Notes: a model not told the origin generated them from the sequence alone. A DNA stretch of 64,000 nucleotides from Bacteroidota bacterium (GCA_037033465.1 JAZBLX010000002.1:109299-173298); one strand, 5' to 3'; positions 3,052 through 62,575 are shown, counted from the first letter of the stretch. A program made the numbers and translations.

Positions 3052-4053
3052 TTATCTTTCGATCAGTTTAGCGGGTAATATGATGTGCTCGTTATCGAGC
3101 TTTGTTTTAGAAGAAAGCTGACTTAGGATCAGCTGAATTACTGTTTCGGCAATCTCTTCAAGTGGTTGTTGTACAGCGGAAATCCCCGGGGTATGAAGCT
3201 CAAATACTTCATGATCATCATAGGCAATTACACTGAAATCATCACCAATTTTTTTGCCGGTTTGCTTTAATACTTTGAGTCCGCTTATGGCTAAATAATT
3301 TGTGGCAAAGAGCACCGCATCTATTTCTTCTGTTTGGAAAAGTTTTGCCATTTGGACCATTGTTTCATTTTCATTCTGATTGAAATGAACCTTTAATACC
3401 AGTTTTTCGTCATAAGGAATGTCGTAATCAGTCAGCGCTTTTTTATAAGCGGCCAAACGTTCTGTAATTTGCTGCACATCGATATCGATGGTGATCAGGG
3501 AGATTTTCTTTTTCCCTTGTTTTATAAAATGCTCAATAGAATGGTAAGTGGCTTTAAAATGATCTGCACCAACATAATTGGTATCCAAATCCGGTAGGTT
3601 CCTGTCGAACAAAATAACAGGTTTATTATCAGCCATTAACTGTTGAATATCTTCTTCCAGACCTTTTATAGGGGAAATGATATAACCATCAACCTTTCTC
3701 GACTTAAACATATTAATCAGTTCTTTCGCTTTTTCAATACGGTTTTCCGTGCTGGAATAAATAATTTTATACCCTTTTTTATAAGCCTTATCTTCAATTA
3801 ATCTGGCTATCCGTGAGAAGAATGAATTGGAAATATCTTCCACAATTAATCCGATAATGTTTGAGTTACCAGTTCTTAAACTTCTGGCAATCTGATTTGG
3901 TTTATAGCCGCTCTCTACAATAATTTTCTCTACTTTTTTAATTACGGCTTCGCTGATTGATTTATCTCTGGCTTTACCATTAATAATAAAAGAAACTGTA
4001 GTGATGGATACGCCAGCTTTGACGGCAATATCTTTTATAGAAAGGCTTTTCAT
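3052..4053 (-). CDS. LacI-family transcriptional regulator
   Basis: 333 aa. N-terminal HTH IKDIAVKAGVSITTVSFIINGK followed by a periplasmic-binding-protein-like sugar-binding fold. Confidence 0.9.
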   Translation of the reverse strand: MKSLSIKDIAVKAGVSITTVSFIINGKARDKSISEAVIKKVEKIIVESGYKPNQIARSLRTGNSNIIGLIVEDISNSFFSRIARLIEDKAYKKGYKIIYSSTENRIEKAKELINMFKSRKVDGYIISPIKGLEEDIQQLMADNKPVILFDRNLPDLDTNYVGADHFKATYHSIEHFIKQGKKKISLITIDIDVQQITERLAAYKKALTDYDIPYDEKLVLKVHFNQNENETMVQMAKLFQTEEIDAVLFATNYLAISGLKVLKQTGKKIGDDFSVIAYDDHEVFELHTPGISAVQQPLEEIAETVIQLILSQLSSKTKLDNEHIILPAKLIER

Positions 4054-4252: not shown

Positions 4253-5905
4253 TTAATAGCCAGGGTTCTGGGCTAAATTCTCGTTTAAGGTTCTTTGAAT
4301 TAAAGGAATTGGAAACAGCTGTCTGAACGGTGCTGATGGTGTATGATCCCACCATGTAGCGGTGTGGAATTTCCCGAAACGAATTAAATCGTCACGTCTA
4401 AAACCTTCAAATACAAACTCACGTCCTCTTTCGTTTAATAATTCATCAAGCGTTAAAGTGGCTGTGGTATACTGGTTTGCTGGCCAGGTAGCTTCTGTGA
4501 ACGCACGTTTCTTGCAGTCGTTAATTAATTGTACAGCCTCTGCATTTGCAGCCCCACCATTTTTACGCATAATGGCTTCTGCTTTTGCAAAATAGATCCA
4601 GGTAAGGCGATACAAATTCCAATCAGTACAATTGTAATTTAAATCGATACCAACAGGATTGCCATTTACGATACCAGCCACGTTGTTACCCAATTTATAT
4701 TTGTTAAAGCGCACGCCACTGTTCTCTTCACCTTCGCTCATGTTTGAAACAGTTGAATTTGCTCTGGCACGACGAATCTCATCAACGAAATTAATTTGCT
4801 GACCATCATATTCATTACCACCTGATGCAAGAGCTGGAGCACCATTATCAAAACGAAACTGTGGACCCTGTAATAACCAGGTACTTTTTCTCAAGTCATC
4901 GTTGCTATATTTAGTATAATTACCTGGAACCATCACCACGCCATTATTTCCATTTCTAGATCCACCATATATTCTGTCTTGCTGAAAATGGAAGAAGTCA
5001 CCGGTCCATGAGGGTTGCGAATTCGCAATTCTAAACTCGTAAGCAATTGCAAAAATAACTTCTTTCGATAGATCGTTAGTCGTTTTAAATTGATCAGTAA
5101 TGTTCGGATCCAATGCCATTGGACCATTCTGACCACCGCCTTCGTTGTTAATCAATTTATTAGCTGCAGCAATACAATCATCCCAGCGTGCAGTACCTGT
5201 CCAAACTTCGGCATTTAAATAAAGTTCTACCAACATGGCATATCCACCAGCTTGCGTCATACGTCCAAGCATGTTTTTCGAAAGTTTTGGAGCTTTATCA
5301 ATATTATCTTTGATTTCCTTCTCGATAAAGGCAAAAACTTCTGCACGCGGCCTGGTTTCGGGCTTTGCTGGTATTCCAATCTGAGTAACAATCGGAATAT
5401 TGCCGAACAGATCCATTAATTTAAGGTAATGATACGCCCTTAACAGTTTTAATTCAGAAATATAAGCGTCTTTTTCTACCTGGGTTACTCCCATTTGTGA
5501 TAGACTGCGTTTTTCTAAATTCTCAATTGGATCATTACAATAACCAACACCACCGAACATCAAACCCCATGCACTGTTTAACGGCCCATCATCTACCAAC
5601 CAGGTGTGGTAGTGCAAGCGTTTCCATTTTCCACCGTCTTCACCATGGCGCCCTTTTGTTGGCCACGCCAGCTGATCGCCAGAAAGCTCAGAAGGCCTCC
5701 ACCATCCATCCTGCCCAGAAGGAGTTGCCCAAGCGTTGGCATGAGTATAAGGTCGTAGCACAGCAGATAGCACTTCGTTTTTATTATTGTAATAATTATC
5801 TGTAATTAATTGACTGTATACATTCTCATCTAGCTTAGTACATGCATTAAATAGTATTGGTGAAGCTACTATCGCCGAGAGAATGACTTTTTTAAATGTT
5901 CTCAT
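4253..5905 (-). CDS. SusD/RagB-family nutrient-binding outer-membrane lipoprotein
   Basis: 550 aa with a lipoprotein signal (LFNAC). The C-terminal RGREF.FEG.R..DL.R and final NPGY are typical of SusD. It lies directly downstream of its SusC partner. Confidence 0.9.
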   Translation of the reverse strand: MRTFKKVILSAIVASPILFNACTKLDENVYSQLITDNYYNNKNEVLSAVLRPYTHANAWATPSGQDGWWRPSELSGDQLAWPTKGRHGEDGGKWKRLHYHTWLVDDGPLNSAWGLMFGGVGYCNDPIENLEKRSLSQMGVTQVEKDAYISELKLLRAYHYLKLMDLFGNIPIVTQIGIPAKPETRPRAEVFAFIEKEIKDNIDKAPKLSKNMLGRMTQAGGYAMLVELYLNAEVWTGTARWDDCIAAANKLINNEGGGQNGPMALDPNITDQFKTTNDLSKEVIFAIAYEFRIANSQPSWTGDFFHFQQDRIYGGSRNGNNGVVMVPGNYTKYSNDDLRKSTWLLQGPQFRFDNGAPALASGGNEYDGQQINFVDEIRRARANSTVSNMSEGEENSGVRFNKYKLGNNVAGIVNGNPVGIDLNYNCTDWNLYRLTWIYFAKAEAIMRKNGGAANAEAVQLINDCKKRAFTEATWPANQYTTATLTLDELLNERGREFVFEGFRRDDLIRFGKFHTATWWDHTPSAPFRQLFPIPLIQRTLNENLAQNPGY

Positions 5906-5916
5906 TTCTTTTATTA

Positions 5917-8900
5917 TTAAAATCCAAAATTAACACCGAAAACAAAACTTCTTGTGGTTGGGTAAGGACTTCTGACATCAATACCTAAACTGCGTCCATT
6001 GATTTCATTTCCTAAACCTACATCCTGAATGGTATCAGGATCATTGCCTGAATAACCTGTTATTAAAGCCAGGTTTTGTCCTACCGCATAAACGCGTAAG
6101 CTTCTGAAAGCTTTATCTTTAAATTTAAATGTGTACCCAAGCGTTACCTCGTCAAGTTTTAGAAAACTTGCATTTTCGACATAGTAATCAGAGTACATAT
6201 AGGTGTCGTTAATTTCTGCGTATTTGGTAAAAGCACTATTTAACAAATTCCCCTGAGTTCCAAATTTATTCCCATAAGATAAGGCAACAGTGTTAAGTGC
6301 ATCAAAGCCCAACTTACTTCTTAAGAATATTCTTAAGTCAAACTGTTTGTAAGTAAAGGTGTTTCCCAAGGAAAGATAATACTTCGGAATCGCATTACCG
6401 ATTGGCTGAAGATCAGTCTGATCTCTAAAAGGAGAAGTGTTGATCTGAGCATTAGGGACTGCCTGGCCTGCTCGGTTATAGAATAACCATTTACCTTCGG
6501 GTGTGAAGCCCGCAAAACGCTTACCCCAAAACTCGCCTATGTTACGGCCTTCATAAGTACGGAATGCATTTCCAAGAGCTCCTGCCCCACCAATACTACC
6601 AAACTCCACCATATCTCTTTTATAGATGTCATTTGAAAAAGTTTCTAACTTATTATCGATGGTGCTTCCTGCAAAATCAACATTCCAGGTGAAGTCGTTT
6701 CCTTTAATTGCTGCATAGCTTAAGGAAAGCTCTATCCCTTTAGCTGAAATAGTACCTACATTTGTATAAATTGAACCTTGAACAAACGGCGGTTGAGGGG
6801 AAGTATAAGTATAAAGTAAATCAACAGTATTACGTTTAAATACCTCTAAGGAACCACTGAGTCTGTTATCCAGCATTCCAAAGTCTATTCCCAAATTATA
6901 TTCACGTTTGCGTTCCCATCTTAAATCAGGATTTGGGTTACGTGATGGGCCATACGTTTGTAACCAGGTACCACCTGGGAAAGGGTAAAGATTACCAGTA
7001 CTCAAAGTAACCAGCGATGCATAATTTGCGAAACCAGAGTTACCTGTTTCTCCGTAGCCAGCTCTTAGCTTCAAGAAGTTAAGCCATTTGGTGTTTTCCA
7101 TAAATTTCTCGCGGGTGATTTCCCATGAAGCAGATAGAGCAGGGAAACTAGCCCACTTGTTGTTTCGTCCAAATCTTGAAGAACCCTCTCTCCTTAATAC
7201 CGCTTCAACGTTCACTTTACCATCGAATGTATAGTGTACACGACCGAACAATCCAATTAAGGTATTATCATCTTTAAAACTTCCGATACCAATTCTATTA
7301 ATACCAACAGGTACTGAACCCAGGTTATTTTCTTCGAAAAGATCGTTAGTATATCCGCGGTTGTTTGCACTAAATTCCTCATTTACTTCATAACGATAAG
7401 AATATCCCACCATTCCGGTTAAACGGTGTTTATCATTGATCATTTTGCTGTATTCTATGGTAGGTTCAAAATTGAAATTTTGTTCCAATCGCGTGCCTTT
7501 GTAAGCATAACCACCACCTGGAGAATCGCCATTTTCAACAGAATTCTGACTGCCGATTGCGCGGTATTGATTATCAATAAATTGGTTTCTTTGGTAAGCT
7601 ACAAATGCAGAGGCTTTCAAATCTTTTATGATATCAATATCGATCTTTCCATCTACCGAGTAGGTTTGCTGACTTCTTTTGTTCTTTTCTTGTTCTAAAC
7701 GAGCAATCTCATTAGTGATGTTCCTTGTAAACAAATAAGAGCCATCAGGATTGTAGTATGATTCTGTAGGGTTTTTAATTAACACAGGTTCCCAACCTCC
7801 GCCACCTAATAAGTTAGCATTATTGATGTTGGATGCAATATTAAACATGGCAGAAACTTTATCTTTGAAACCCTTTTGCGTTAGGCTCATTCTAAACTGA
7901 TATTGCTCCCTAGTGTTTGCCTTTGAGAAACCATCTAACTTATTATAAGTAAATGAGGCACGATAGGTAGATTTATCCCCACCACCAGCTACAGAAAGAT
8001 TTTGGTAATTGGTGAGATTGTCTTCATTAATTAATTCATTAAAATAATCAAAGTCACCTCCAAAATCCTGAGCTTTATATTGTCCACTTGCTAATTTTTC
8101 CCTGAATTGGGTTGCATTCATAAAATCAGGGCGTTCATACAATGTTTCATGTCTGAGATAGCCATTATAATTAAATTGAGAAGGACCTTTACGTCCTTTT
8201 TTAGTAGTTACCAGGATAACACCGGCATTGGCACGTGTACCATAAATTGCTGCTGCCGATCCATCTTTTAAAACAGTAAAAGACTCTATATCATCTTGTT
8301 GAAGTAAATCTAAGTTACCACCAGGAATGCCATCGATAACAATGAGTGGAGAAAGTGATCCAGAGATAGAAGTTACGCCTCGGAGTTGAATAGCTACACC
8401 AGAATTAGGATTGGAACTATTTCTGGAAATTTGTAAACCAGCCACCTTACCTTGTAATAAATCCAAAGCATTTCTCGCTCCACTCTGCCTGAATTGCGAA
8501 GTATCAACTTTGGTAATGGCAGAAGTTAATTCACGCTGACTACGTGTACCATACCCCACAACGACTACATCATCCAATTTCGTATCAGATGCTACAGCTA
8601 GCTTGATATTTAGATTAGTTTCAGCACCAACAGTTACGTTCTGTGTTTGATAACCGAGGAATGTAAACCGGATGACCTCATTTTCGTTTGCTTCAATTTT
8701 AAACTGCCCGTTGGCATCTGTTACCGTACCTTGTCCGGAGGTAATATTCTTAACCCCGACACCCGGAACACCCAGATTTTTTTCATCCACAACTTTCCCG
8801 GTAATTACCTTCCGCACACTTGCTTTGTGCCAGGGAACTTCAACCTCGAGAAGGCCATCGAAATCTTTTCGGTCAGATTCAGCCGAAAGCGCCGGAAAAC

Positions 8901-10346: not shown

Positions 10347-10356
10347 GTTCTAGTAT

Positions 10357-10510
10357 TGAGTAGTGAGTGGTAAGTCTTACGTAATAAGTTTTAAGTAATA
10401 TGTATTGACTTTATACATTTTTATTTTCTATTTCCTGTTTTCTATTCCCTGCTTTCCATCCCCTGCTTTCCATTCCCTATTTTCTACTTCCTATTCCCTA
10501 TTCTGTTTCT
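10357..10510 (-). repeat. Heptamer-phased degenerate tandem repeat, 22 consecutive 7-nt units
   Basis: Plus strand reads TGAGTAG TGAGTGG TAAGTCT TACGTAA TAAGTTT TAAGTAA TATGTAT TGACTTT ATACATT TTTATTT TCTATTT CCTGTTT TCTATTC CCTGCTT TCCATCC CCTGCTT TCCATTC CCTATTT TCTACTT CCTATTC CCTATTC TGTTTCT. On the sense (minus) strand it starts at the stop codon of the 90-aa gene as GGAATAGG-type purine words. Confidence 0.8.
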
Positions 10511-10782
10511 CAAAAAACTTTATAAGCGAAGAAAATAAGTGCACAAAGAAAAGTAGCGGCTAAAATACCCCTTCCAATATTTTCTTTATTGAATTTAAAG
10601 AAATACTGCATAATGTAAGCATTCACGGCAATTCCACCGATATATAATAAATCTGCCTTTGCCAGTGATGCAACATGATGAATAATAAACCAGGCGATAG
10701 CACATAGCGTAGCCGGGGATAATAAACCGATCCACAGACCAATCCACACGGAATTATTTAGCTTCCTTAAGCGATCCTGCAT
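10510..10782 (-). CDS. Small integral membrane protein (about 3 TM), function unknown
   Basis: 90 aa and hydrophobic (WIGLWIGLLSPATLCAIAWFII..., ILAATFLCALIFFAY). Tightly packed, 5 nt after surE. Confidence 0.6.
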   Translation of the reverse strand: MQDRLRKLNNSVWIGLWIGLLSPATLCAIAWFIIHHVASLAKADLLYIGGIAVNAYIMQYFFKFNKENIGRGILAATFLCALIFFAYKVF

Positions 10783-23305: not shown

Positions 23306-23488
23306 ATGGCAAAAAAAGGTAACAGAGTTCAGGTTATTTTAGAATGTACTGAACATAAAGAAAGTGGCATGCCAGGTATGTCTAGATATATTTCTACCAA
23401 AAACCGTAAAAACACAACCGAGCGTTTAGAATTGAAAAAATTCAATCCAGTGTTGAGAAAAGTAACCGTACATAAAGAAATTAAATAG
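23306..23488 (+). CDS. rpmG: 50S ribosomal protein L33
   Basis: [17 protein letters not shown]......[24 protein letters not shown] is canonical L33. Confidence 0.93.
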
Positions 23489-23559
23489 TTGAATGATAGA
23501 TTGACCGATTGATTGAATTTATTTCAATCCTTCCAACATTCTCTAACTCAATCATTAAA
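23489..23559 (+). repeat. Heptamer-phased imperfect hairpin element in the rpmG-DUF4295 spacer
   Basis: TGAATGA TAGATTG ACCGATT GATTGAA TTTATTT CAATCCT TCCAACA TTCTCTA ACTCAAT CATTAAA. The central perfect 7-bp stem is GATTGAA (23511-17) / TTCAATC (23523-29). Confidence 0.6.
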
Positions 23560-23570
23560 AACATAAGAAC

Positions 23571-28836: not shown

Positions 28837-28846
28837 GTTTATAAAA

Positions 28847-28923
28847 AAGGTTTAAGGTAAAAGGTGTAAAATTTAGGGTTCAGACAATCTGCCTTAAACC
28901 CTAAACCTTACACCTTAAACAAC
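28847..28923 (-). repeat. Heptamer-phased hairpin element (AAGGTNN words / AAACCTT words)
   Basis: AAGGTTT AAGGTAA AAGGTGT AAAATTT AGGGTTC AGACAAT CTGCCTT AAACCCT AAACCTT ACACCTT AAACAAC. The arms are complementary at word level, with one unit bulged. Confidence 0.8.
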
Positions 28924-28955
28924 GCAAGTTACTATTTCTTGCGATTAATTATAAA

Positions 28956-31749: not shown

Positions 31750-32427
31750 ATGTACCTGATCAAATCACCGCTTCTGCTAAAATGGTATTATCCATCATTA
31801 CTTTGGAATAAATCCCGCACCGAAAAAGTTATTTATTTGACCTTTGACGATGGACCTATACCCAATGTTACAGATTTTGTTTTAAAAACTTTAAAAGCCT
31901 TTAACGCAAAAGCTACATTTTTTTGCATCGGTGACAATATTGTTAAGCATCCCGACGTTTACGCGAATATCTTAAATGACGGACATGCCATCGGAAACCA
32001 TACTTTTAATCATTTAAAAGGCTGGAAAACCGATGATGAAACCTATATCCAAAACACTTTAAAATGCCAGGCACTTACGCAATCAAATCTTTTTCGCCCA
32101 CCTTACGGAAGGATCAAGAAGAGTCAGATTGCGAGTCTTCAGTCCTTAGTCCTTAATCCGAAGTCAGACTTTAGATTTGAGACTCCAGACTCCAAACTCA
32201 AGACTCCAGACTCAAGACTAGACATCATCATGTGGGATGTCCTGAGTGGCGATTTTGACATCAACTTATCTCCTGAAAAATGTTATCAAAACGTGATAAA
32301 TCATACCGAAAATGGTTCGATTATCGTATTTCATGATAGCTTAAAAGCATTTGACCGATTAGCATACGCATTGCCTCGGGCATTAAAATATTTTGCAGAT
32401 AAAGGTTTCGCTTTTTCAACGTTGTAG
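31750..32427 (+). CDS. Polysaccharide deacetylase (NodB/CE4 domain) carrying an in-frame repeat insertion
   Basis: CE4 motifs LTFDDGP, GNHTFNH, RPPYG, IIMWDV and VFHDS are present. About 20 extra residues with the 7-aa repeat TPDSKLK TPDSRLD lie between RPPYG and IIMWDV. Confidence 0.8.
   Translation: MYLIKSPLLLKWYYPSLLWNKSRTEKVIYLTFDDGPIPNVTDFVLKTLKAFNAKATFFCIGDNIVKHPDVYANILNDGHAIGNHTFNHLKGWKTDDETYIQNTLKCQALTQSNLFRPPYGRIKKSQIASLQSLVLNPKSDFRFETPDSKLKTPDSRLDIIMWDVLSGDFDINLSPEKCYQNVINHTENGSIIVFHDSLKAFDRLAYALPRALKYFADKGFAFSTL
32133..32223 (+). repeat. Heptamer-phased repeat lying inside the deacetylase CDS
   Basis: GAGTCTT CAGTCCT TAGTCCT TAATCCG AAGTCAG ACTTTAG ATTTGAG ACTCCAG ACTCCAA ACTCAAG ACTCCAG ACTCAAG ACTAGAC. 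ACTCN words fall at exact 7-nt spacing six times. Left-arm AGTCYTT words complement right-arm AAGACT words. Confidence 0.8.
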
Positions 32428-39741: not shown

Positions 39742-39783
39742 GATGGATGAAGGGGAATGGAAGATGGGAAATAGGAAATGGAA
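39742..39783 (+). repeat. Purine-rich heptamer block directly after the rlmH stop
   Basis: GATGGAT GAAGGGG AATGGAA GATGGGA AATAGGA AATGGAA. Same GGAAAT/GGAATGG word family as the kdp and lpxB spacers. Confidence 0.65.
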
Positions 39784-39837
39784 TTTTGACAATTGATATG
39801 GATTTACTATTCATTCATCATCATTAAATAAAAAGAT

Positions 39838-40556: not shown

Positions 40557-40568
40557 AATATTTTTTTT

Positions 40569-40708
40569 GAGATGTGAGATTTTAGAAAAAGAAGTGTTAA
40601 TCACTTACAATTAATACCCAAATCTATTATCTAATTAATTAAATGAGAAAGAGATTCAAATCGGAGAATAATATCTCAAATCTAATGTCTCACATCTCCA
40701 TCTTTTTA
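40569..40708 (-). repeat. Heptamer-phased element with an 11-bp perfect terminal inverted repeat (ppiase-DUF5606 spacer)
   Basis: GAGATGTGAGA (40569-79) and TCTCACATCTC (40688-98). Units include ...CCAAATC TATTATC TAATTAA TTAAATG AGAAAGA GATTCAA ATCGGAG AATAATA TCTCAAA TCTAATG TCTCACA TCTCCAT. It abuts the PPIase stop codon. Confidence 0.7.
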
Positions 40709-54276: not shown

Positions 54277-55614
54277 ATGAACGGGATCATCCTCATCATT
54301 GATGATGAAAAAAAAATCAGCAGTTTACTCTCCAGAATAATTGAGTTAGAGGGTTTTAAAACATTGCAGGCGGCTACAGGTAAAGAGGGTTTGAAACTCC
54401 TTAAAAATAACGATGTAAGCATTGTTATCAGTGATGTAAAACTGCCCGATGTGAATGGCGTGGCAATGGTAAAAGACATAAAATTACTGAAACCCTATGT
54501 AGAAGTGATTAATCTTACCGCTTACGGAACAATTTCTGATGGTGTTCTAGCCATCAAAAACGGCGCCTTTGATTACCTGGTGAAAGGTGATGATAACGAT
54601 AAAATTATTCCCTTACTCTACAAAGCCATTGAAAAAGCCAATCTGCAACAAAGAGTGGCAGAATTATCACAGAAGATTGCGGGCAAACACCAATTCAATA
54701 CCATCATTGGGCAATCGAAGAAACTAAACGAAGCCATTGATTTAGCTAAGAGGGTAAGTCAAACTGATACCACCGTTTTGCTTTTAGGTGAAACCGGAAC
54801 AGGAAAAGAAGTTTTTGCACAATCCATTCATTATGAAAGCCCGCGGGCAGCCAAGCCTTTTGTAGCCTTGAACTGTAGTGGCTTTAGTCCTGATTTACTG
54901 GAAAGTGAATTATTTGGTTACAAGGCTGGTGCTTTTACCGGCGCCAATAAAGATAAAAAAGGCTTATTGGAAGAGGCCAACGGCGGAACACTTTTTCTGG
55001 ATGAAATTGGTGAAATGAACCTCGATTTACAAGCCAAACTCTTGCGGGTACTGGAAAACCAAAGTTTTATCAAGGTTGGGGATACACACACGCAGCAGGT
55101 AAATGTCCGTATTCTCGCAGCCACCAATAAAGATTTAAAAGCAGACGCAGCATCTGGAAAGTTCCGTTCTGATTTGTATTACCGCCTTTCAGTTTTTACG
55201 ATTATGCTTCCGCCGCTGCGGGAACGTAAAGCCGATATTTCAATGTTGGCGAAGTACTATCTTAAAGAATATGCTACTAAATCCAACCGGACTTCACTTC
55301 ACCTCGATGATAAAATTCTGGATATTTTTGAAAAATATCAGTGGCGTGGCAACATCAGGGAACTCAAAAACGTGATGGAACGTTTGGTCATCTTATCTGA
55401 TGGAGATGAGCTGAACCTATCAGTATTGCCGCCGGAGTTTTTTGAATTCGCGCCTGTTCCAAATAATTTTAACCTTCAACAGGTAGAAAAACAACACATT
55501 CAAAAAGTACTGGTCCATACGAAAGGCAATAAAACGGAAACTTCCAGATTATTGGGAATTGGACTGACGACACTTTATCGTAAAATAGAAGAATACGGGA
55601 TTTTGGAAATTTAA
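54277..55614 (+). CDS. Sigma-54-dependent response regulator (NtrC family)
   Basis: Receiver domain (IIDDE...VISDVKLPD), AAA+ domain with GETGTGKE and GAFTGA, C-terminal Fis-type HTH. Confidence 0.92.
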   Translation: MNGIILIIDDEKKISSLLSRIIELEGFKTLQAATGKEGLKLLKNNDVSIVISDVKLPDVNGVAMVKDIKLLKPYVEVINLTAYGTISDGVLAIKNGAFDYLVKGDDNDKIIPLLYKAIEKANLQQRVAELSQKIAGKHQFNTIIGQSKKLNEAIDLAKRVSQTDTTVLLLGETGTGKEVFAQSIHYESPRAAKPFVALNCSGFSPDLLESELFGYKAGAFTGANKDKKGLLEEANGGTLFLDEIGEMNLDLQAKLLRVLENQSFIKVGDTHTQQVNVRILAATNKDLKADAASGKFRSDLYYRLSVFTIMLPPLRERKADISMLAKYYLKEYATKSNRTSLHLDDKILDIFEKYQWRGNIRELKNVMERLVILSDGDELNLSVLPPEFFEFAPVPNNFNLQQVEKQHIQKVLVHTKGNKTETSRLLGIGLTTLYRKIEEYGILEI

Positions 55615-57318: not shown

Positions 57319-57524
57319 ATGCCTAAAATTTCGATTGCTACCAGAAACAAGAACAAACTGCACCTAATCAACCAGTTACAAAAAAGCAGGTATCAGCGGC
57401 ACAAGAGTTGGCAACAGGCATTTCATAAATCAATAAGTTATGACAATTATCCTGTTTCTCCTTTTAATCCTGCTCTGCTGGGCAACTTACCTCTCTATCG
57501 ATTGGTTCGAAAAAATCTAAGAAA

Positions 57525-57602
57525 ATGTTAGCACTATCTATCATCGCAATCGCCGTATTTATCTATATGATTTACGTGTTGATTAAACCAGAAAAATTTT
57601 AA
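57525..57602 (+). CDS. kdpF: K+-transporting ATPase subunit F
   Basis: 25-aa ORF below the track cutoff: MLALSIIAIAVFIYMIYVLIKPEKF. One TM helix, the typical KdpF C-terminus, and a position upstream of kdpA. Confidence 0.7.
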   Translation: MLALSIIAIAVFIYMIYVLIKPEKF

Positions 57603-57607
57603 CACAA

Positions 57608-57768
57608 AAATGGAAAGAGAAATTGAAAGCCGGAAATTGAAAATAGGAAACGGATAATAGCCAATAAGAAAACTAAGAAATGGCTCAACACCTATATTCC
57701 ATTTTCTAAAATCTACTTCCTCTTCCCTGAAATTTATTTCCTACATCAAAAATCTGCTTCTCTTTAAA
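57608..57768 (+). repeat. Heptamer-phased purine-arm/pyrimidine-arm element in the kdpF-kdpA spacer (about 23 units)
   Basis: AAATGGA AAGAGAA ATTGAAA GCCGGAA ATTGAAA ATAGGAA ACGGATA ATAGCCA ATAAGAA AACTAAG AAATGGC | TCAACAC CTATATT CCATTTT CTAAAAT CTACTTC CTCTTCC CTGAAAT TTATTTC CTACATC AAAAATC TGCTTCT. Confidence 0.8.
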
Positions 57769-57779
57769 AAACAAAAACA

Positions 57780-59498
57780 ATGAACACTGAATTAACCGGC
57801 ATTATTGCCACCTTTCTGCTCACCTTAGTTATAGCCATCCCTTTGGGGAAATATTTGGCAAAGGTTTTTGCAGGAGAAAAAGTCTGGACAGACTTTTTAA
57901 AACCATTAGAAAACATTATCTATAAGCTTTCAGGCATCAATGTGAAGGAACAGATGAACTGGAAACAACAATTAAAAGCATTGCTCACCCTTAACCTATT
58001 GTGGCTGATTTATGGTTTTTTTGTTTTAATTTTTCAAGATAAACTGCCTTTTAATCCCGATGGAAATCCAGGCATGACGCCCGATCTGGCTTTCAATACG
58101 ATCGTTAGTTTTGTAGCCAATTGTAACCTTCAACACTATTCTGGCGAAAGTGGCGTAAGCTACCTTACCCAGCAATTCGTACTGATGTTTCTACAATTTG
58201 TAAGTGCTGCTACCGGGATTGCGGCAGCAGTGGTTTTATTTAAAGCTTTTAGAGATAAAACAGCTACACAGCTTGGTAACTTCTGGGAGTTTTTTGTTAA
58301 AGCAATTACCCGCTTATTATTGCCTCTATCAATAGTGATTGCCTTAATATTAACATTTAATGGTACACCAGCAAGTTATGAAGGCAAAGACCAGTTCATT
58401 TCTATGCAGGGCGATACCGTAAATGTTTCCCGCGGTCCGGCGGCACAGCTAATTGCCATAAAACATTTGGGAACGAATGGTGGTGGGTATTTTGGTGCCA
58501 ATTCTGCCCACCCATTCGAAAACCCAAGCTACTTAACCAATATGGTGGAAATGATTGCACAGACCATCATTCCGATTGCCATGATCATCGCTTTTGGCTA
58601 CTTCATCCGCAGAAAAAAATTAGCATGGACCATCTTTGGGGTGATGACGATTGGCTTATTTATGCTGATGATTCCAGCCATCACTTCCGAGTTAGCTGGA
58701 AATCCAGCCTTGGCAAAAATGGGAATCTCACAAGCAACAGGCGCGATGGAGGGGAAAGAAGTACGATTCGGTCCTGCGGCAACGGCTTACTGGAGCACAT
58801 TAACGACCGTAATTTCTACAGGTTCGGTGAATGGGATGCACGACAGTACTATGCCATTAACGGGCTTATGGCAACTGCTCGCCATGATGATTAATGCCAT
58901 TTACGGTGGCTGCGGTGTTGGTTTGCTAAATTATTTTGTCTACCTGATTATTGCCGTATTCATTTCAGGATTAATGGTGGGTAGAACCCCAGAATTTTTA
59001 GGGCATAAAGTAGAAGCAAGAGAAATCAAAATTGCCGCCATCATCACTTTGTTAAGTCCATTTTTAATCTTAGCGGGAACAGCAATCGCCACTTATGTTT
59101 TTACTAATCATGGCGATGCAGCCTGGGCGGTTCAACCGAAAGCCTGGTTAAACAATCGAGCCTTTCATGGCTTCTCCGAAATGCTTTACGAGGTTACTTC
59201 TTCAAATGCAAACAACGGCTCTGGTTTTGAAGGGCTCGGCGACAATAACGTATTTTGGAACGTGTTGACAGGTGTAATTATCTTCCTCGGACGCTTCCTG
59301 CCTATTATCGGTCCGGTGGCAATTGCAGGTTTGTTAGGAAGCAAAAAATTCATTCCTGAATCGGCTGGTACTTTAAAAACCGACACGAAAACTTTTGCAC
59401 TGATGACATTCGCCGTGATCCTGGTATTAACCGCATTGTCTTATTTCCCTGCGCTCGCCTTAGGCCCGATTGCAGAATATTTTACTATGCTTAAATAA
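57780..59498 (+). CDS. kdpA: K+-transporting ATPase subunit A
   Basis: 572 aa polytopic protein with KdpA selectivity-filter-like GTNGGG. Confidence 0.93.
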   Translation: MNTELTGIIATFLLTLVIAIPLGKYLAKVFAGEKVWTDFLKPLENIIYKLSGINVKEQMNWKQQLKALLTLNLLWLIYGFFVLIFQDKLPFNPDGNPGMTPDLAFNTIVSFVANCNLQHYSGESGVSYLTQQFVLMFLQFVSAATGIAAAVVLFKAFRDKTATQLGNFWEFFVKAITRLLLPLSIVIALILTFNGTPASYEGKDQFISMQGDTVNVSRGPAAQLIAIKHLGTNGGGYFGANSAHPFENPSYLTNMVEMIAQTIIPIAMIIAFGYFIRRKKLAWTIFGVMTIGLFMLMIPAITSELAGNPALAKMGISQATGAMEGKEVRFGPAATAYWSTLTTVISTGSVNGMHDSTMPLTGLWQLLAMMINAIYGGCGVGLLNYFVYLIIAVFISGLMVGRTPEFLGHKVEAREIKIAAIITLLSPFLILAGTAIATYVFTNHGDAAWAVQPKAWLNNRAFHGFSEMLYEVTSSNANNGSGFEGLGDNNVFWNVLTGVIIFLGRFLPIIGPVAIAGLLGSKKFIPESAGTLKTDTKTFALMTFAVILVLTALSYFPALALGPIAEYFTMLK

Positions 59499-59517
59499 AT
59501 TCTGAAGCCGAGTTAAG

Positions 59518-59550
59518 CTTTCTTAATCCGAGATTCTATTAAGAAAGTTT
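59518..59550 (+). other. Perfect 10-bp stem-loop followed by TTT inside the kdpA-kdpB spacer
   Basis: CTTTCTTAAT (59518-27) pairs with ATTAAGAAAG (59538-47), with a 10-nt loop. Possible attenuator or processing hairpin. Confidence 0.4.
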
Positions 59551-59572
59551 AGCCTGACCGATTTGAAAAATT

Positions 59573-59604
59573 AATCTGTGAAATCATTTTAAATCTGTGA
59601 GATC
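59573..59604 (+). repeat. Two direct copies of the AATCTGTGNAATC-type motif (orphan copy of the GxxExxY-flank motif)
   Basis: AATCTGTGAAATC (59573-85) is the exact reverse complement of GATTTCACAGATT at 24811-23. The second copy is AATCTGTGAGATC at 59592-604. Confidence 0.7.
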
Positions 59605-59619
59605 ACCTAATTAAATAAA

Positions 59620-61647
59620 ATGAAACCCAATAATAAATTGTTCGAACCTGCTTTAGTGCAAACTGCATTGAAACAATCTTTCATCAAATTAGACCCTCGG
59701 GTAATGGTTCGCAACCCGGTAATGTTTACCGTCGAAATCGGAACCCTCGTAATGGCTTATGTTACTGTTTACTCTTTCAGCCATAGCGGACAAGGTTCAC
59801 CGCTTTATAACTTCTTTATCTTTTTAATTCTGTTGCTCACTGTTCTTTTTGCGAATTTTGCAGAGGCTATTGCCGAAGCAAGAGGTAAGGCGCAAGCTGA
59901 TAGCTTACGCAAAACAAGAGAGGAAACACCTGCCAAAGTACTTTTGGAGAATGGCTCATTTGAAATCCGTTCATCAAACTCGTTAAAAAAGGGCGATATC
60001 TTTATTTGCGAAACCGGCGATACCATCCCAACAGATGGAGAAATTATCGAAGGAATTGCAACGATCGATGAATCTGCCATCACCGGTGAATCTGCGCCGG
60101 TAATTCGTGAGTCTGGTGGCGATAAATCATCGGTTACCGGCGGTACAAAGGTATTGTCTGATGAAATCAAAGTGCAGGTAAGCACGGCTCCGGGTGAAAG
60201 CTTTCTCGATAAAATGATTGCTTTGGTGGAAGGTGCGTCACGTCAGAAAACGCCAAATGAAATTGCCTTAACCATCCTGCTGGCAAGTTTTACTCTGGTA
60301 TTTATTATCGTTTGCGTAACGCTGAAACCATTCGCCGATTACGCCAATACCCCCATTACCATTGCTGCGTTAATTTCATTATTCGTATGCTTAATTCCAA
60401 CCACAATTGGTGGCTTATTATCTGCCATCGGGATTGCCGGAATGGACAGGGCTTTAAGAGCGAATGTAATTACCAAATCAGGTAAAGCGGTAGAAACAGC
60501 TGGCGATATTGACGTGTTGCTTTTGGATAAAACCGGAACCATCACCATCGGAAACCGGAAAGCAACCAACTTCTACCCAACAGCAGGTGTGATGATCAAA
60601 AACTTTACCGATGCCTGTGTATTAAGTTCTTTGGCTGATGAAACCCCAGAGGGAAAATCAATCATTGAATTAGCTGCCGAGCAGGGTTTTAAAAGTGCCG
60701 GAACTCCCAATGGCTCTACATTTATCAAATTTACCGCAGAAACCCGCTCCAGCGGATTAGATACCCTTGATGGCAGGCGAATTAGAAAAGGTGCTTTTGA
60801 TTCGATCAGAAACATCGTTGAGAAAGCAGGAAATATTTTCCCATCAGATATTGAGGACCATGTTAAGGCTATTGCTACCAACGGCGGAACGCCACTAGTG
60901 GTTTCAGAAAATGAAAAAGCCTTAGGCGTAATCGAGCTGCAGGATATTATCAAACCAGGCATCAGCGAACGGTTCGAACGCTTAAGAAAAATGGGCGTAA
61001 AAACCGTAATGGTTACTGGCGATAATCCGTTAACAGCAAAATACATTGCCGAAAAAGCTGGTGTAGATGATTTTATTGCAGAGGCAAAGCCTGAAGATAA
61101 AATGAACTACATTAAAGATGAACAGGCTTTAGGAAAATTGGTCGCCATGATGGGCGATGGTACAAATGATGCACCGGCACTTGCACAAGCTGATGTTGGC
61201 GTGGCCATGAACAGTGGAACGCAGGCGGCAAAAGAAGCAGGAAACATGGTCGATTTAGATAACGACCCCACCAAGTTAATCGAAATTGTAGAAATTGGTA
61301 AACAGCTGTTAATTACCAGGGGAACGCTCACTACTTTCTCCATTGCCAATGATGTAGCTAAATACTTTGCCATTGTTCCGGCACTATTTATTGCCTCCAT
61401 TCCAGCATTGCAACGTTTGAACATCATGGGTTTACATTCACCTGAAAGCGCAATTATGTCGGCGGTTATTTTCAATGCAATCATCATTCCGATCTTAATT
61501 CCATTGGCTTTGAAAGGTGTGGCTTATAAACCTATCGGTGCTACTGCTTTACTTCGAAGAAACTTATTTATCTATGGAATCGGCGGTGTTGTGGCGCCAT
61601 TTATAGGCATCAAACTAATTGACCTCGTCATTGGATTATTTGTTTAA
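59620..61647 (+). CDS. kdpB: K+-transporting P-type ATPase subunit B
   Basis: 675 aa. DKTGTIT phosphorylation motif, [12 protein letters not shown]. Confidence 0.95.
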
Positions 61648-61650
61648 AAC

Positions 61651-61909
61651 AGGAAACAGACAAGAGGGGAAATGGGAAATAGATAGAAGGAAATGAAAAA
61701 TAGTAAGTGGGGGAATAGGAAATAGACAAATGGAAAAATAAGAAATAGGTAACGAACAGATCAAGATAGAAGGACAAAAGGATGAAAACAATATAAATAC
61801 CTCCCATTAAATCCATTTCCTAACATCTGATTCCTAATATCTATTTCCTATTCCCTTAAACCCATTTCCTAATACCTATACCTATTTCCTAACACCTATT
61901 TCCTAAAAT
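61651..61909 (+). repeat. Largest heptamer-phased element (about 37 units) in the kdpB-kdpC spacer
   Basis: The purine arm reads GGGAAAT GGGAAAT AGATAGA AGGAAAT GAAAAAT AGTAAGT ..GGAAT AGGAAAT AGACAAA... In the pyrimidine arm ATTTCCT recurs at 61815, 61843, 61864, 61884 and 61898. There is a 16-nt perfect inverted core at 61711-26 / 61840-55. Confidence 0.85.
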
Positions 61910-61945
61910 ATATTCTCAAAGAAATCTTTAAAAATTAAAAATATC

Positions 61946-62506
61946 ATGAAAAAATACATCATACCATCATTACGCTTAACCTTGGTTCTAATCGTACTAT
62001 TATGCATTATCTACCCCATCAGCATTGCGCTTGCAGGCAAATTTTCTAAAGGAAATGGCGGTGGAGAAAAAATCACTAAAAATGGCAAAACGATAGGTTA
62101 TGCTTTGCTCGGTCAATCGTTTACCAAACCAGAATATTTCTCTGGCAGACCATCAGCTGTAGGTTACAACGCTGCAGGTTCCGCAGGTTCAAATAAAGGC
62201 CCATCAAATCCGGACTACTTAAAAGATGTTCAGTCCAGAATTGATACCCTATTGAAATATAACGCTGATTTGAAAAAATCAGATATCCCTGCAGACATGG
62301 TCACTGCATCTGGCAGTGGTTTAGACCCTAACATCTCTGAGCAAGGTGCCGCCATTCAGGTTGCAAGAGTAGCCAAAGCCCGTAAAATAAGCGAGCAAAA
62401 AGTAAAAGAATTGATTGCCATGAATACGATAAAACCATTATTAGGCTTGTTCGGCCCTTCATCAGTAAATGTATTGAAATTGAATTTAGCATTAGATAAT
62501 TTGTAG
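61946..62506 (+). CDS. kdpC: K+-transporting ATPase subunit C
   Basis: 186 aa. N-terminal TM anchor, SGSGLDP.IS motif. Confidence 0.92.
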   Translation: MKKYIIPSLRLTLVLIVLLCIIYPISIALAGKFSKGNGGGEKITKNGKTIGYALLGQSFTKPEYFSGRPSAVGYNAAGSAGSNKGPSNPDYLKDVQSRIDTLLKYNADLKKSDIPADMVTASGSGLDPNISEQGAAIQVARVAKARKISEQKVKELIAMNTIKPLLGLFGPSSVNVLKLNLALDNL

Positions 62507-62548
62507 GACCTCTCAATCTTAACGCAATTGCTGTAACCCCTAGCTATA

Positions 62549-62575
62549 GGATTGCTTCGTTCCTCAGCAATGACG
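62549..62575 (+). repeat. Short hairpin motif GGATTGCTTCGTTCCTCAGCAATGACG
   Basis: ATTGCT (62551-56) pairs with AGCAAT (62566-71). From memory, it resembles the ...ATTGCTTCG...CCTCGCAATGAC hairpin repeats dispersed in many Bacteroidota genomes. Confidence 0.35.

Follow-up and report, generated by a model that had tools for sequence, protein, structure and literature searches.

The STRR (short tandemly repeated repetitive) sequences of heterocystous cyanobacteria are built on the units CCCCAGT, TTGGTCA and CAACAGT, and the repetitive extragenic palindromic sequences and bacterial interspersed mosaic elements (REP/BIME) of enterobacteria are intercistronic palindromes, found for example between malE and malF. 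In later summaries of the survey by Mrazek (2007), 7 nt units are over-represented among prokaryotic long simple sequence repeats (LSSRs) and show an intergenic bias (PMC4679880, PMC4692102), with polymerase slippage as the proposed source of the heptamer excess (PMC4679880). G-rich heptamer simple sequence repeats (SSRs) have been described in Xanthomonas (GGGAATC) and Nostoc (GGGGAYT) (Rehm et al., 2015; PMC4692102). About 90% of these are intergenic, mostly between co-directional open reading frames (ORFs), the G-rich strand lying no more than about 50 nt past a stop codon (sense) or at most 50 nt upstream of an ORF (antisense); 70–75 convergent pairs are able to form stem-loops, array length varies between species and unit number between close relatives, and the repeats are transcribed (PMC4692102). 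Post-transcriptional control has been proposed for TAACTGA repeats (MacGregor, 2015; PMC4679880), long heptamer arrays have already been noted in a few Bacteroidetes (PMC4679880) and CspB is cited as binding heptamer repeats with one protein per heptamer (in PMC4679880). In this study, we analysed a 64 kb stretch of DNA from a Bacteroidota bacterium (GCA_037033465.1 JAZBLX010000002.1:109299-173298; the window, from the first letter of which all positions are counted) in which the spacer between kdpB and kdpC is filled by an inverted element of heptamer units. Judged from its sequence, the spacer is a Bacteroidota counterpart of the heptamer repeats known from Xanthomonas and cyanobacteria, in an A-rich form largely without G-quadruplex (G4) motifs.

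Architecture and predicted fold of the kdpB–kdpC spacer

The spacer measures exactly 298 nt (61648–61945) between the kdpB stop codon (61645–61647) and the kdpC ATG at 61946. An earlier reading of the window (the original prediction) had described it as filled by a heptamer-phased element with a purine arm and a complementary pyrimidine arm, and composition and periodicity agree with that description. Positions 61648–61790 contain 78 A, 9 C, 40 G and 16 T, with a single C in 61662–61752; positions 61791–61945 contain 57 A, 39 C, 2 G and 57 T, and 61829 and 61921 are the sole G residues between 61785 and 61945. On the plus strand, the spacer opens with a purine-rich lead-in, AACAGGAAACAGACAAGA (61648–61665), which is the outermost base of the predicted stem; the kdpB stop lies 19 nt before the first clear heptamer unit. 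The G-type, C-poor arm (61666–61751) holds about 12 imperfect heptamers (GGGGAAA, TGGGAAA, TAGATAG, AAGGAAA and so on) with a register that slips between 7 and 8 nt; the count of about 21 RGGAAAT units originally given for it was too high, as only seven positions match with at most one mismatch and about 12 units are in phase. Outside 61666–61751 the purine arm is rich in purines without periodicity. A central region, degenerate and purine-rich and then A-rich (61752–61806), forms the mostly unpaired or weakly paired top of the hairpin in the minimum free energy (MFE) fold. The almost G-free C-type arm (61807–61914) has a 14 nt super-period and five copies of ATTTCCT, all at the positions originally predicted (61815, 61843, 61864, 61884 and 61898). 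Also as predicted, the 5′ half of an inverted core in the first arm, GGGAATAGGAAATAGA (61711–61726), is perfectly complementary over 16 nt to the 3′ half in the second, TCTATTTCCTATTCCC (61840–61855). The spacer closes with the A/T-rich kdpC leader, ending in TTAAAAATTAAAAATATC (61915–61945), which matches the short ancestral spacer of relatives without an insert.

Periodicity was assessed by identity autocorrelation against 500 dinucleotide-preserving shuffles, the control that had been suggested for the predicted period of 7, and the signal rises above that of shuffled sequence: for the whole spacer, lags 7, 14 and 21 give z scores of 5.0, 8.0 and 4.1, respectively. Most of this comes from the pyrimidine arm (lag 14, z = 6.7). 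The purine arm by itself is weakly periodic (lags 7–8, z of about 2) because of its slipping register. Tandem Repeats Finder (TRF) reports periods of 7, 14, 20 and 34 at 61815–61914. The pattern is real and not a product of chance.

The spacer RNA has a predicted MFE of −67.6 kcal/mol, compared with a mean of −49.8 kcal/mol for dinucleotide shuffles (z = −3.8) and of −37.3 kcal/mol for shuffles confined to one arm at a time so as to preserve the purine/pyrimidine asymmetry (z = −6.9; none of 200 as good). A strong hairpin is thus predicted, in line with the duplex between the arms originally suggested, but its supposed tolerance of G·U pairs finds no support: in 11 elements, alignment of the 5′ arm with the reverse-complemented 3′ arm gave 23 G·U-compatible mismatches, 32 A·C mismatches and 65 transversions. 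No covariation was found either, RNAalifold on four homologues giving 18 pairs and −7.9 kcal/mol with a covariation term of +0.5. With neither a G·U preference nor covariation, there is no sign of pairing maintained in the sense RNA, and the spacer is not a conserved structured RNA.

The surrounding genes are those of a kdpFABC potassium-pump cluster, the identities of KdpF, KdpA, KdpB and KdpC being supported by NCBIfam models: kdpF (57525–57599), kdpA (57780–59498), kdpB (59620–61647, plus strand; TIGR01497, 1031 bits) and kdpC (61946–62506, plus strand; KdpC models). KdpC of the window is 95% identical to that of Pedobacter sp. CFBP9032 and N23S346, and the host is a Pedobacter. No Rfam family reached the gathering threshold in the window and none appeared inside the spacer at E values up to 10. 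No terminator-like site lies within 61648–61945, and the sequence directly after the predicted stem, AAAATATATTCTC, does not have the form of an intrinsic terminator (a short G+C-rich stem followed by a U-run). Sigma-70-like sites did not exceed chance, the sole match touching the spacer being a 9/12 match on the minus strand in a region with fewer matches than the shuffle mean, and the Bacteroidetes −7 motif TAnnTTTG was not found in the spacer. The operon is not interrupted by a promoter or terminator motif at kdpB–kdpC. A coding sequence was considered and rejected, as the antisense ORFs 61628–61816 and 61636–61791 have no NCBIfam matches and are not conserved in relatives; together with the repeat layout and the site scans, this agrees with the earlier exclusion of a coding sequence, a CRISPR array and a single REP palindrome.

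Turnover of the junction and the dispersed family

To place the spacer among its orthologues, loci around kdpC were fetched from genomes (80) and metagenomes (80), and about 150 related kdp spacers were compared. Orthologous kdpB–kdpC spacers range from 4 to 652 nt. About 60 relatives, including nearly all Mucilaginibacter and many Pedobacter, have a spacer of 4–26 nt, and the corresponding distance in E. coli is 8 nt, in keeping with the expectation that kdp genes are tightly spaced. These short spacers consist of an A/T-rich leader (…AAAAATATC or AAATC before the ATG) that matches the last 20 or so nucleotides of the window spacer. By this comparison, the tight 4–26 nt spacer is the ancestral form and the heptamer element a secondary, lineage-specific expansion.

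The long spacers hold at least four unrelated classes of hairpin-forming repeats. Class A, the purine/pyrimidine heptamer element, is present in the window and in L085, L086, L028, L003, L001/L096/L098, L005, L014/L097, L025/L044/L106/L107, L109 and L076. The other three are REP-like, lie at about 5750–6000 in each locus and have long conserved consensus sequences in other Pedobacter species: class B, TGTCATTCTGAGCGCAGCGAAGAATC…GATGCTTCG…CTCAGCATGACA, in L002, L009, L033, L039, L041 and L062; class C, CTGTCACGTTGAGCCTGTCGAAACGC…CTTCGAC.AGCTCAGGATGACA, in L010 (8–9 tandem copies, 652 nt), L011, L016, L017 and L019; and class D, CGTCATTCCCGCG…GGGAATGACG, in L013, L024, L027 and L038. A neighbour-joining tree of the C-terminal 500 amino acids of KdpB places class A in at least 4–5 separate lineages, among which empty sites and loci of classes B, C and D are interspersed. 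The junction is thus not a conserved operon feature but a hotspot at which repeated palindromic DNA is turned over. A half-copy of class B, GGATTGCTTCGTTCCTCAGCA, is also present in the window at 62540–62569, just 3′ of kdpC.

Alignment of the orthologous spacers, which the original prediction had recommended, revealed both presence/absence and unit-number variation. An identical spacer is present in three independent assemblies with 99.9% identity to the window; it is thus not hypervariable at the strain level, and among these three assemblies there is no evidence of phase variation. The spacer of L085, the KdpC of which is 98% identical, is 269 nt long; relative to that of the window, it has five substitutions and four indels (14, 13, 1 and 1 nt). 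The two large ones are located inside the pyrimidine arm, and the 14 nt segment missing from L085 contains most of the 3′ half of the core. Its predicted fold is reduced to −44.9 kcal/mol (z = −1.5), and in L028, a 95% relative, the fold is no better than shuffled (z of 0.06 and −0.3). Indels of 13, 14 and 7 nt separate L106 from L107, and indels of 14, 7, 35 and 1 nt separate L025 from L106. Steps of whole heptamers like these are the signature of a tandem array that undergoes replication slippage or unequal exchange. Neither the presence of the heptamer element nor its pairing strength is conserved, and the notion of a structured insert as a conserved RNA feature fails on presence, length and fold strength, all of which vary among close relatives, as well as on the lack of covariation.

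The element had been proposed as the type locus of a dispersed family, and the window and related genomes do contain such a family, with GGRAATA/TATTYCC elements at three further places in the window and dozens more in the relatives. A sister element fills the kdpF–kdpA spacer (57601–57779, plus strand), with a purine arm, GGAAAGAGAAATTGAAAGCCGGAAATTGAAAATAGGAAAC, followed by a G-poor arm, …TATTCCATTTTCTAAAATCTACTTCCTCTTCCC…ATTTCCTAC; the arms are weakly complementary (fold z = −1.4). On the minus strand, an array of about 12 GGGAATA-type units (10347–10520) starts at the stop of a 90-amino-acid ORF; beyond it, G-poor heptamers of the ACTTA type extend as far as the start of lpxB, without a hairpin (z = +1.9). 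A tract GGGGAATGGAAGATGGGAAATAGGAAATGG, then G-poor (39742–39837, plus strand), lies directly 3′ of the stop of a SPOUT methyltransferase gene. These window elements share the heptamer word only and have neither common termini nor full-length similarity. Other units form comparable structures: between co-directional minus-strand genes, a TTTAAGG/CCTTAAA hairpin (28843–28927; fold z = −5.2) and a GAGATKT hairpin (40562–40708; z = −4.6) are each C-free and then G-free, and the GAGATKT unit also fills the kdpB–kdpC spacer of the metagenome locus L146. A C-poor tract of GATTGAT… followed by a G-free …CAATCCTTCCAACATTCTCTAACTCAATCATT (23487–23570) lies between two small ORFs, which may be ribosomal-protein genes. 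The strength of the predicted fold ranges from z = −6.9 to z = +1.9 across members, and single-arm members occur, as in the kdpB–kdpC spacer of L076 (no C in 86 nt) and at 10347–10520.

The distribution of the family is biased in both location and orientation. In 1.03 Mb (window and genome loci), of which ORFs make up 81%, TRF arrays whose period is a multiple of 7 fall 80 times in intergenic sequence and only 29 times within ORFs. The commonest units in 1.28 Mb are GGAAATA, GGGAATA, GGGAAAT and GAGAATA; the anchored unit profile is G, G, A/G (46/42%), A (72%), A (77%), T/A (50/42%) and A/T, which comes close to a consensus GGGANTN, although A often takes the place of the third G. Defining a G-type segment as C-free and G-rich and a C-type segment as G-free and C-rich, the G-type precedes the C-type in 27 co-directional spacers holding both and follows it in one. 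In such pairs, the median distance is 45 nt between the upstream stop and the G-type segment and 46.5 nt between the C-type segment and the downstream start; in the kdpB–kdpC spacer, 19 nt separate the kdpB stop from the beginning of the G arm, and 31 nt separate the end of the C arm from the kdpC ATG. Leaders are depleted of G at −30 to −1 (11.7% G). Within the window, the kdp cluster holds two of about ten heptamer elements and is not clearly enriched; the fetched loci are almost entirely kdp clusters. G-then-C heptamer arrays fill almost all kdp spacers of L044 and L076. The kdpA–kdpB gap of L076, a metagenome-assembled genome, extends over about 700 nt (3153–3880) and consists of a G-arm/C-arm heptamer hairpin, about 400 nt of unrelated sequence and a C-type array up to the kdpB start. 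Beyond the family's bacterial hosts, (GGRAATA)4 occurs in ten viral contigs of 34–61% GC, at least one of which has the G-then-C arrangement upstream of a start codon; GGRAATA thus recurs as an SSR type and is no mobile sequence specific to Sphingobacteriaceae. The viral contigs L165 and L169, which contain (GGGAATA)n, also hold long tandem arrays of further short units, such as CTGCCAC/CTGCCTT (7 nt) and GGCAGGAGTT (10 nt), that look cyanobacterial in style.

Relation to described repeats and possible origins

The Pedobacter unit GGGAATA is one base off the GGGAATC of Xanthomonas, and the intergenic bias, the positions relative to stop and start codons, the convergent pairs and the change in unit number are shared with the repeats of that genus. 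In contrast to the Xanthomonas and Nostoc repeats, the Pedobacter arrays belong to Bacteroidota, have A-richer units (GGAAATA, GGGAATA, GAGAATA) and are much more degenerate; other C-free units (GATGKAW, GAGATKT, TTTAAGG) behave alike in the Pedobacter set; and the predicted G4 motif is missing from the kdpB–kdpC locus and from 79 of 83 arrays. Because it has no four-tract G4 motif, the spacer is not placed in the quadruplex-forming family but in the wider class of heptanucleotide LSSRs, with which it and its family share tandem, if imperfect, 7 nt units above chance, change of length by whole units and an intergenic bias. The survey by Mrazek (2007) is statistical and, to judge from the summaries that cite it, does not describe purine-arm/pyrimidine-arm palindromes or Sphingobacteriaceae; our literature search likewise turned up no description of such elements from Sphingobacteriia, Pedobacter or Flavobacteria, as the original prediction had supposed. 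The analogy to STRR sequences drawn in that prediction is fair, but the Xanthomonas/Nostoc GGGAATC/GGGGAYT heptamers (PMC4692102) are closer relatives. The STRR and TAACTGA repeats resemble the element in being tandem heptamers of intergenic sequence, in many cases close upstream of start codons, with a sporadic, strain-specific distribution; unlike it, they have other units, are direct only and lack complementary arms. REP/BIME would be the best functional analogy for the intercistronic hairpin: they too are hairpin-forming repeated DNA in operons that is not conserved at orthologous sites, and REP-like palindromes occupy the same junction in other Pedobacter, whereas the element has no conserved 20–40 nt palindrome, its copies share only a 7 nt word and its arms are purine-only and pyrimidine-only tandem arrays.

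Membership of several described classes was examined and rejected. The units are GGRAATR/YATTYCC and the host is a Pedobacter, unlike those of STRR sequences; the window elements include no near-identical copies of a 20–40 nt palindrome, as in REP/BIME; the alignments with L085, L086 and L028 show internal variation in unit steps and no duplicated flank, contrary to a MITE (miniature inverted-repeat transposable element); and the repeats are head-to-tail 7 or 14 nt units, not a CRISPR array with its identical repeats of 23–50 nt and unique spacers of similar length.

We favour, with a probability of roughly 0.6, the reading of the spacer as an imperfect convergent-pair heptanucleotide SSR that was remodelled by slippage within an ancestral gap of about 10–25 nt, is tolerated rather than required and owes its polarity to selection on the transcript. 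On the sense strand, GGRAATR units make up the G-type array just past the kdpB stop, and YATTYCC units, with a 14 nt super-period, make up the C-type array before the ancestral A-rich kdpC leader. The element grows, shrinks and is remodelled in whole-unit steps of 7, 14 or 35 nt, as replication slippage or unequal exchange would produce, and it belongs to a set of unrelated classes of hairpin-forming repeats that are gained and lost at this Pedobacter junction. It is probably transcribed within the kdpFABC mRNA, where it may form a long imperfect hairpin that brings the kdpB stop together with the kdpC leader at a shared stem base, and its effect on expression is probably small. The near-universal order with the G arm first is, in our preferred account, what selection on the transcript lets through. 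A C-rich, G-free arm, if single-stranded, would be a good entry site for Rho or an RNase, and as the second arm it would be paired as soon as it is made; the G-then-C order would also leave G-depleted sequence, which Bacteroidota start regions prefer, beside the start codon. Such a palindrome reads G-then-C on both strands, so that of two conceivable palindrome classes one alone is represented. The polarity may instead be mutational, for example through fold-back copying that acts preferentially on a G-rich nascent strand.

Several points weigh against this reading and lead to its most serious rival. One junction has been filled repeatedly and independently by four hairpin-forming classes, and the hairpin could therefore be useful rather than tolerated. 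The few C-free units that recur across genera (GGRAATA, GATGKAW, GAGATKT) are not predicted by pure neutral slippage. The perfect 16 nt core and a fold far stronger than that of a 98% relative could reflect recent selection or arm-to-arm conversion. The account of the polarity through Rho and the leader is itself conjectural, and the scarcity of lone sense-strand C-type arrays predicted by the Rho idea was not confirmed (46 lone C-type and 42 lone G-type segments, mostly non-periodic, with a loose detector). A functional, REP/BIME-like intercistronic RNA hairpin, which would set subunit stoichiometry by protecting the kdpFAB mRNA from 3′ exonucleases, by providing a processing site, by shielding the untranslated gap from Rho or by placing the kdpB stop beside the kdpC start for re-initiation, is possible, if doubtful. 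The strong fold at this locus, the recurrence of four palindromic classes and the consistent G-arm-then-C-arm order would suit it, as would the purine/pyrimidine-arm elements of the window kdpF–kdpA and kdpB–kdpC spacers with another inverted repeat between kdpA and kdpB, and the filled kdp spacers of L044 and L076. It is hard to reconcile with the 4–26 nt spacers of many Pedobacter and nearly all Mucilaginibacter, with the collapse of the fold in 98% and 95% relatives, with the missing covariation and sense-strand G·U preference, and with single-arm members that are unable to pair. Selection could also have acted at the level of the family, the G-then-C palindromes being a modular spacer cassette of Sphingobacteriaceae operons in which pairing of the C arm masks Rho or RNase entry and controls read-through, and in which, for kdp G arms with GGG runs, a competing K+-dependent G4 would make read-through K+-responsive; we regard this as improbable.

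The remaining candidates concern the G arm, the origin of the insert and its possible ligands. We give little credence to a G4 or other non-B element of the Xanthomonas/Nostoc GGGNATC type, in which a K+-stabilized G4 in the G arm would compete with the hairpin: the single-base difference in the unit, the common positional bias and convergent pairs, and canonical G3N4 runs in some relatives (e.g. L076, 3153–3220) speak for it, but by sequence prediction the region 61648–61790 has neither a 3-tetrad nor a 2-tetrad motif (loops of at most 7 nt), only four of the 83 arrays in 1.28 Mb have the canonical 3-tetrad motif, and the commonest units GGAAATA and GAGAATA offer GG or single-G tracts. Insertion of a non-autonomous mobile element, MITE-like or REP-like, is just as improbable as the G4. 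It would account for presence/absence polymorphism among close relatives, for the acceptance of REP-like repeats at the same site and for the overall inverted-repeat architecture, yet the window copies have only the heptamer word in common, without shared ends or a visible target-site duplication, relatives vary internally by whole units rather than all-or-none, and single-arm arrays exist. That the heptamers are bound by a single-strand nucleic-acid-binding protein at about 7 nt per monomer (cold-shock, S1-domain or similar), which would exert post-transcriptional control as MacGregor proposed for TAACTGA, is unlikely, although less so than the preceding two. The same few units do recur across genera and even in viral contigs, the arrays adjoin stop and start codons and CspB is cited as binding one protein per heptamer (PMC4679880), while the units are degenerate, several unit families behave alike and the arrays are not conserved at orthologous sites.

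For annotation, long and unusual gaps in Pedobacter and other Sphingobacteriaceae operons are often slippage-driven heptamer arrays in G-then-C order and not missing genes, riboswitches or conserved small RNAs. The heptamer-SSR phenomenon of Xanthomonas and Nostoc reaches a third phylum in a mostly non-G4 form, which weakens G4 formation as the explanation of the shared positional bias and convergent pairing. The strict G-then-C polarity and the repeated filling of one junction are the most interesting residue of the analysis: the 27:1 polarity and the succession of unrelated palindromes provide a test case for whether Rho, RNases or Shine–Dalgarno-independent initiation shapes repeat survival in Bacteroidota operons. 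The original prediction over-read the significance of the feature, which itself is real and was correctly described.

Other features of the kdp region and the window

The kdpA–kdpB spacer (121 nt) has an inverted repeat of its own, AAGCTTTCTTAAT … ATTAAGAAAGTTT, at 59505–59560; all three internal kdp junctions of the window thus carry inverted-repeat or complementary-arm sequence. It also contains the direct-repeat motif AATCTGTG(W)AATCA twice (59570–59612). This motif is found just upstream of kdpC in L004, L007, L016, L063, L088, L091, L092, L100 and L111 and may represent a further class of repeat or have a regulatory role.

Elsewhere in the window, AGTCCTT and then AGACTCC heptamer arrays (32141–32219) lie inside a 225-amino-acid ORF (31750–32427). 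The polysaccharide deacetylase domain of this ORF ends at residue 133, where the arrays start, and the ORF may have been disrupted or extended by the repeat. A gene for a sigma-54-dependent response regulator (54277–55614) is located two genes upstream of kdp, and a TGGCA-N6-…TTTC sequence, TTGGCAACAGGCATTTCA, at about 57395–57415 could, from its sequence, be a sigma-54 promoter for the kdp operon. It precedes kdpF and a small ORF immediately 5′ of kdpF (57439–57519) that encodes the hydrophobic 26-residue peptide MTIILFLLLILLCWATYLSIDWFEKI. The peptide has no Pfam match, and its C-terminal …DWFEKI recurs as a conserved stretch in the distant relative L076 (about 1000–1045); the kdp operon may here encode a small membrane protein that has escaped annotation.

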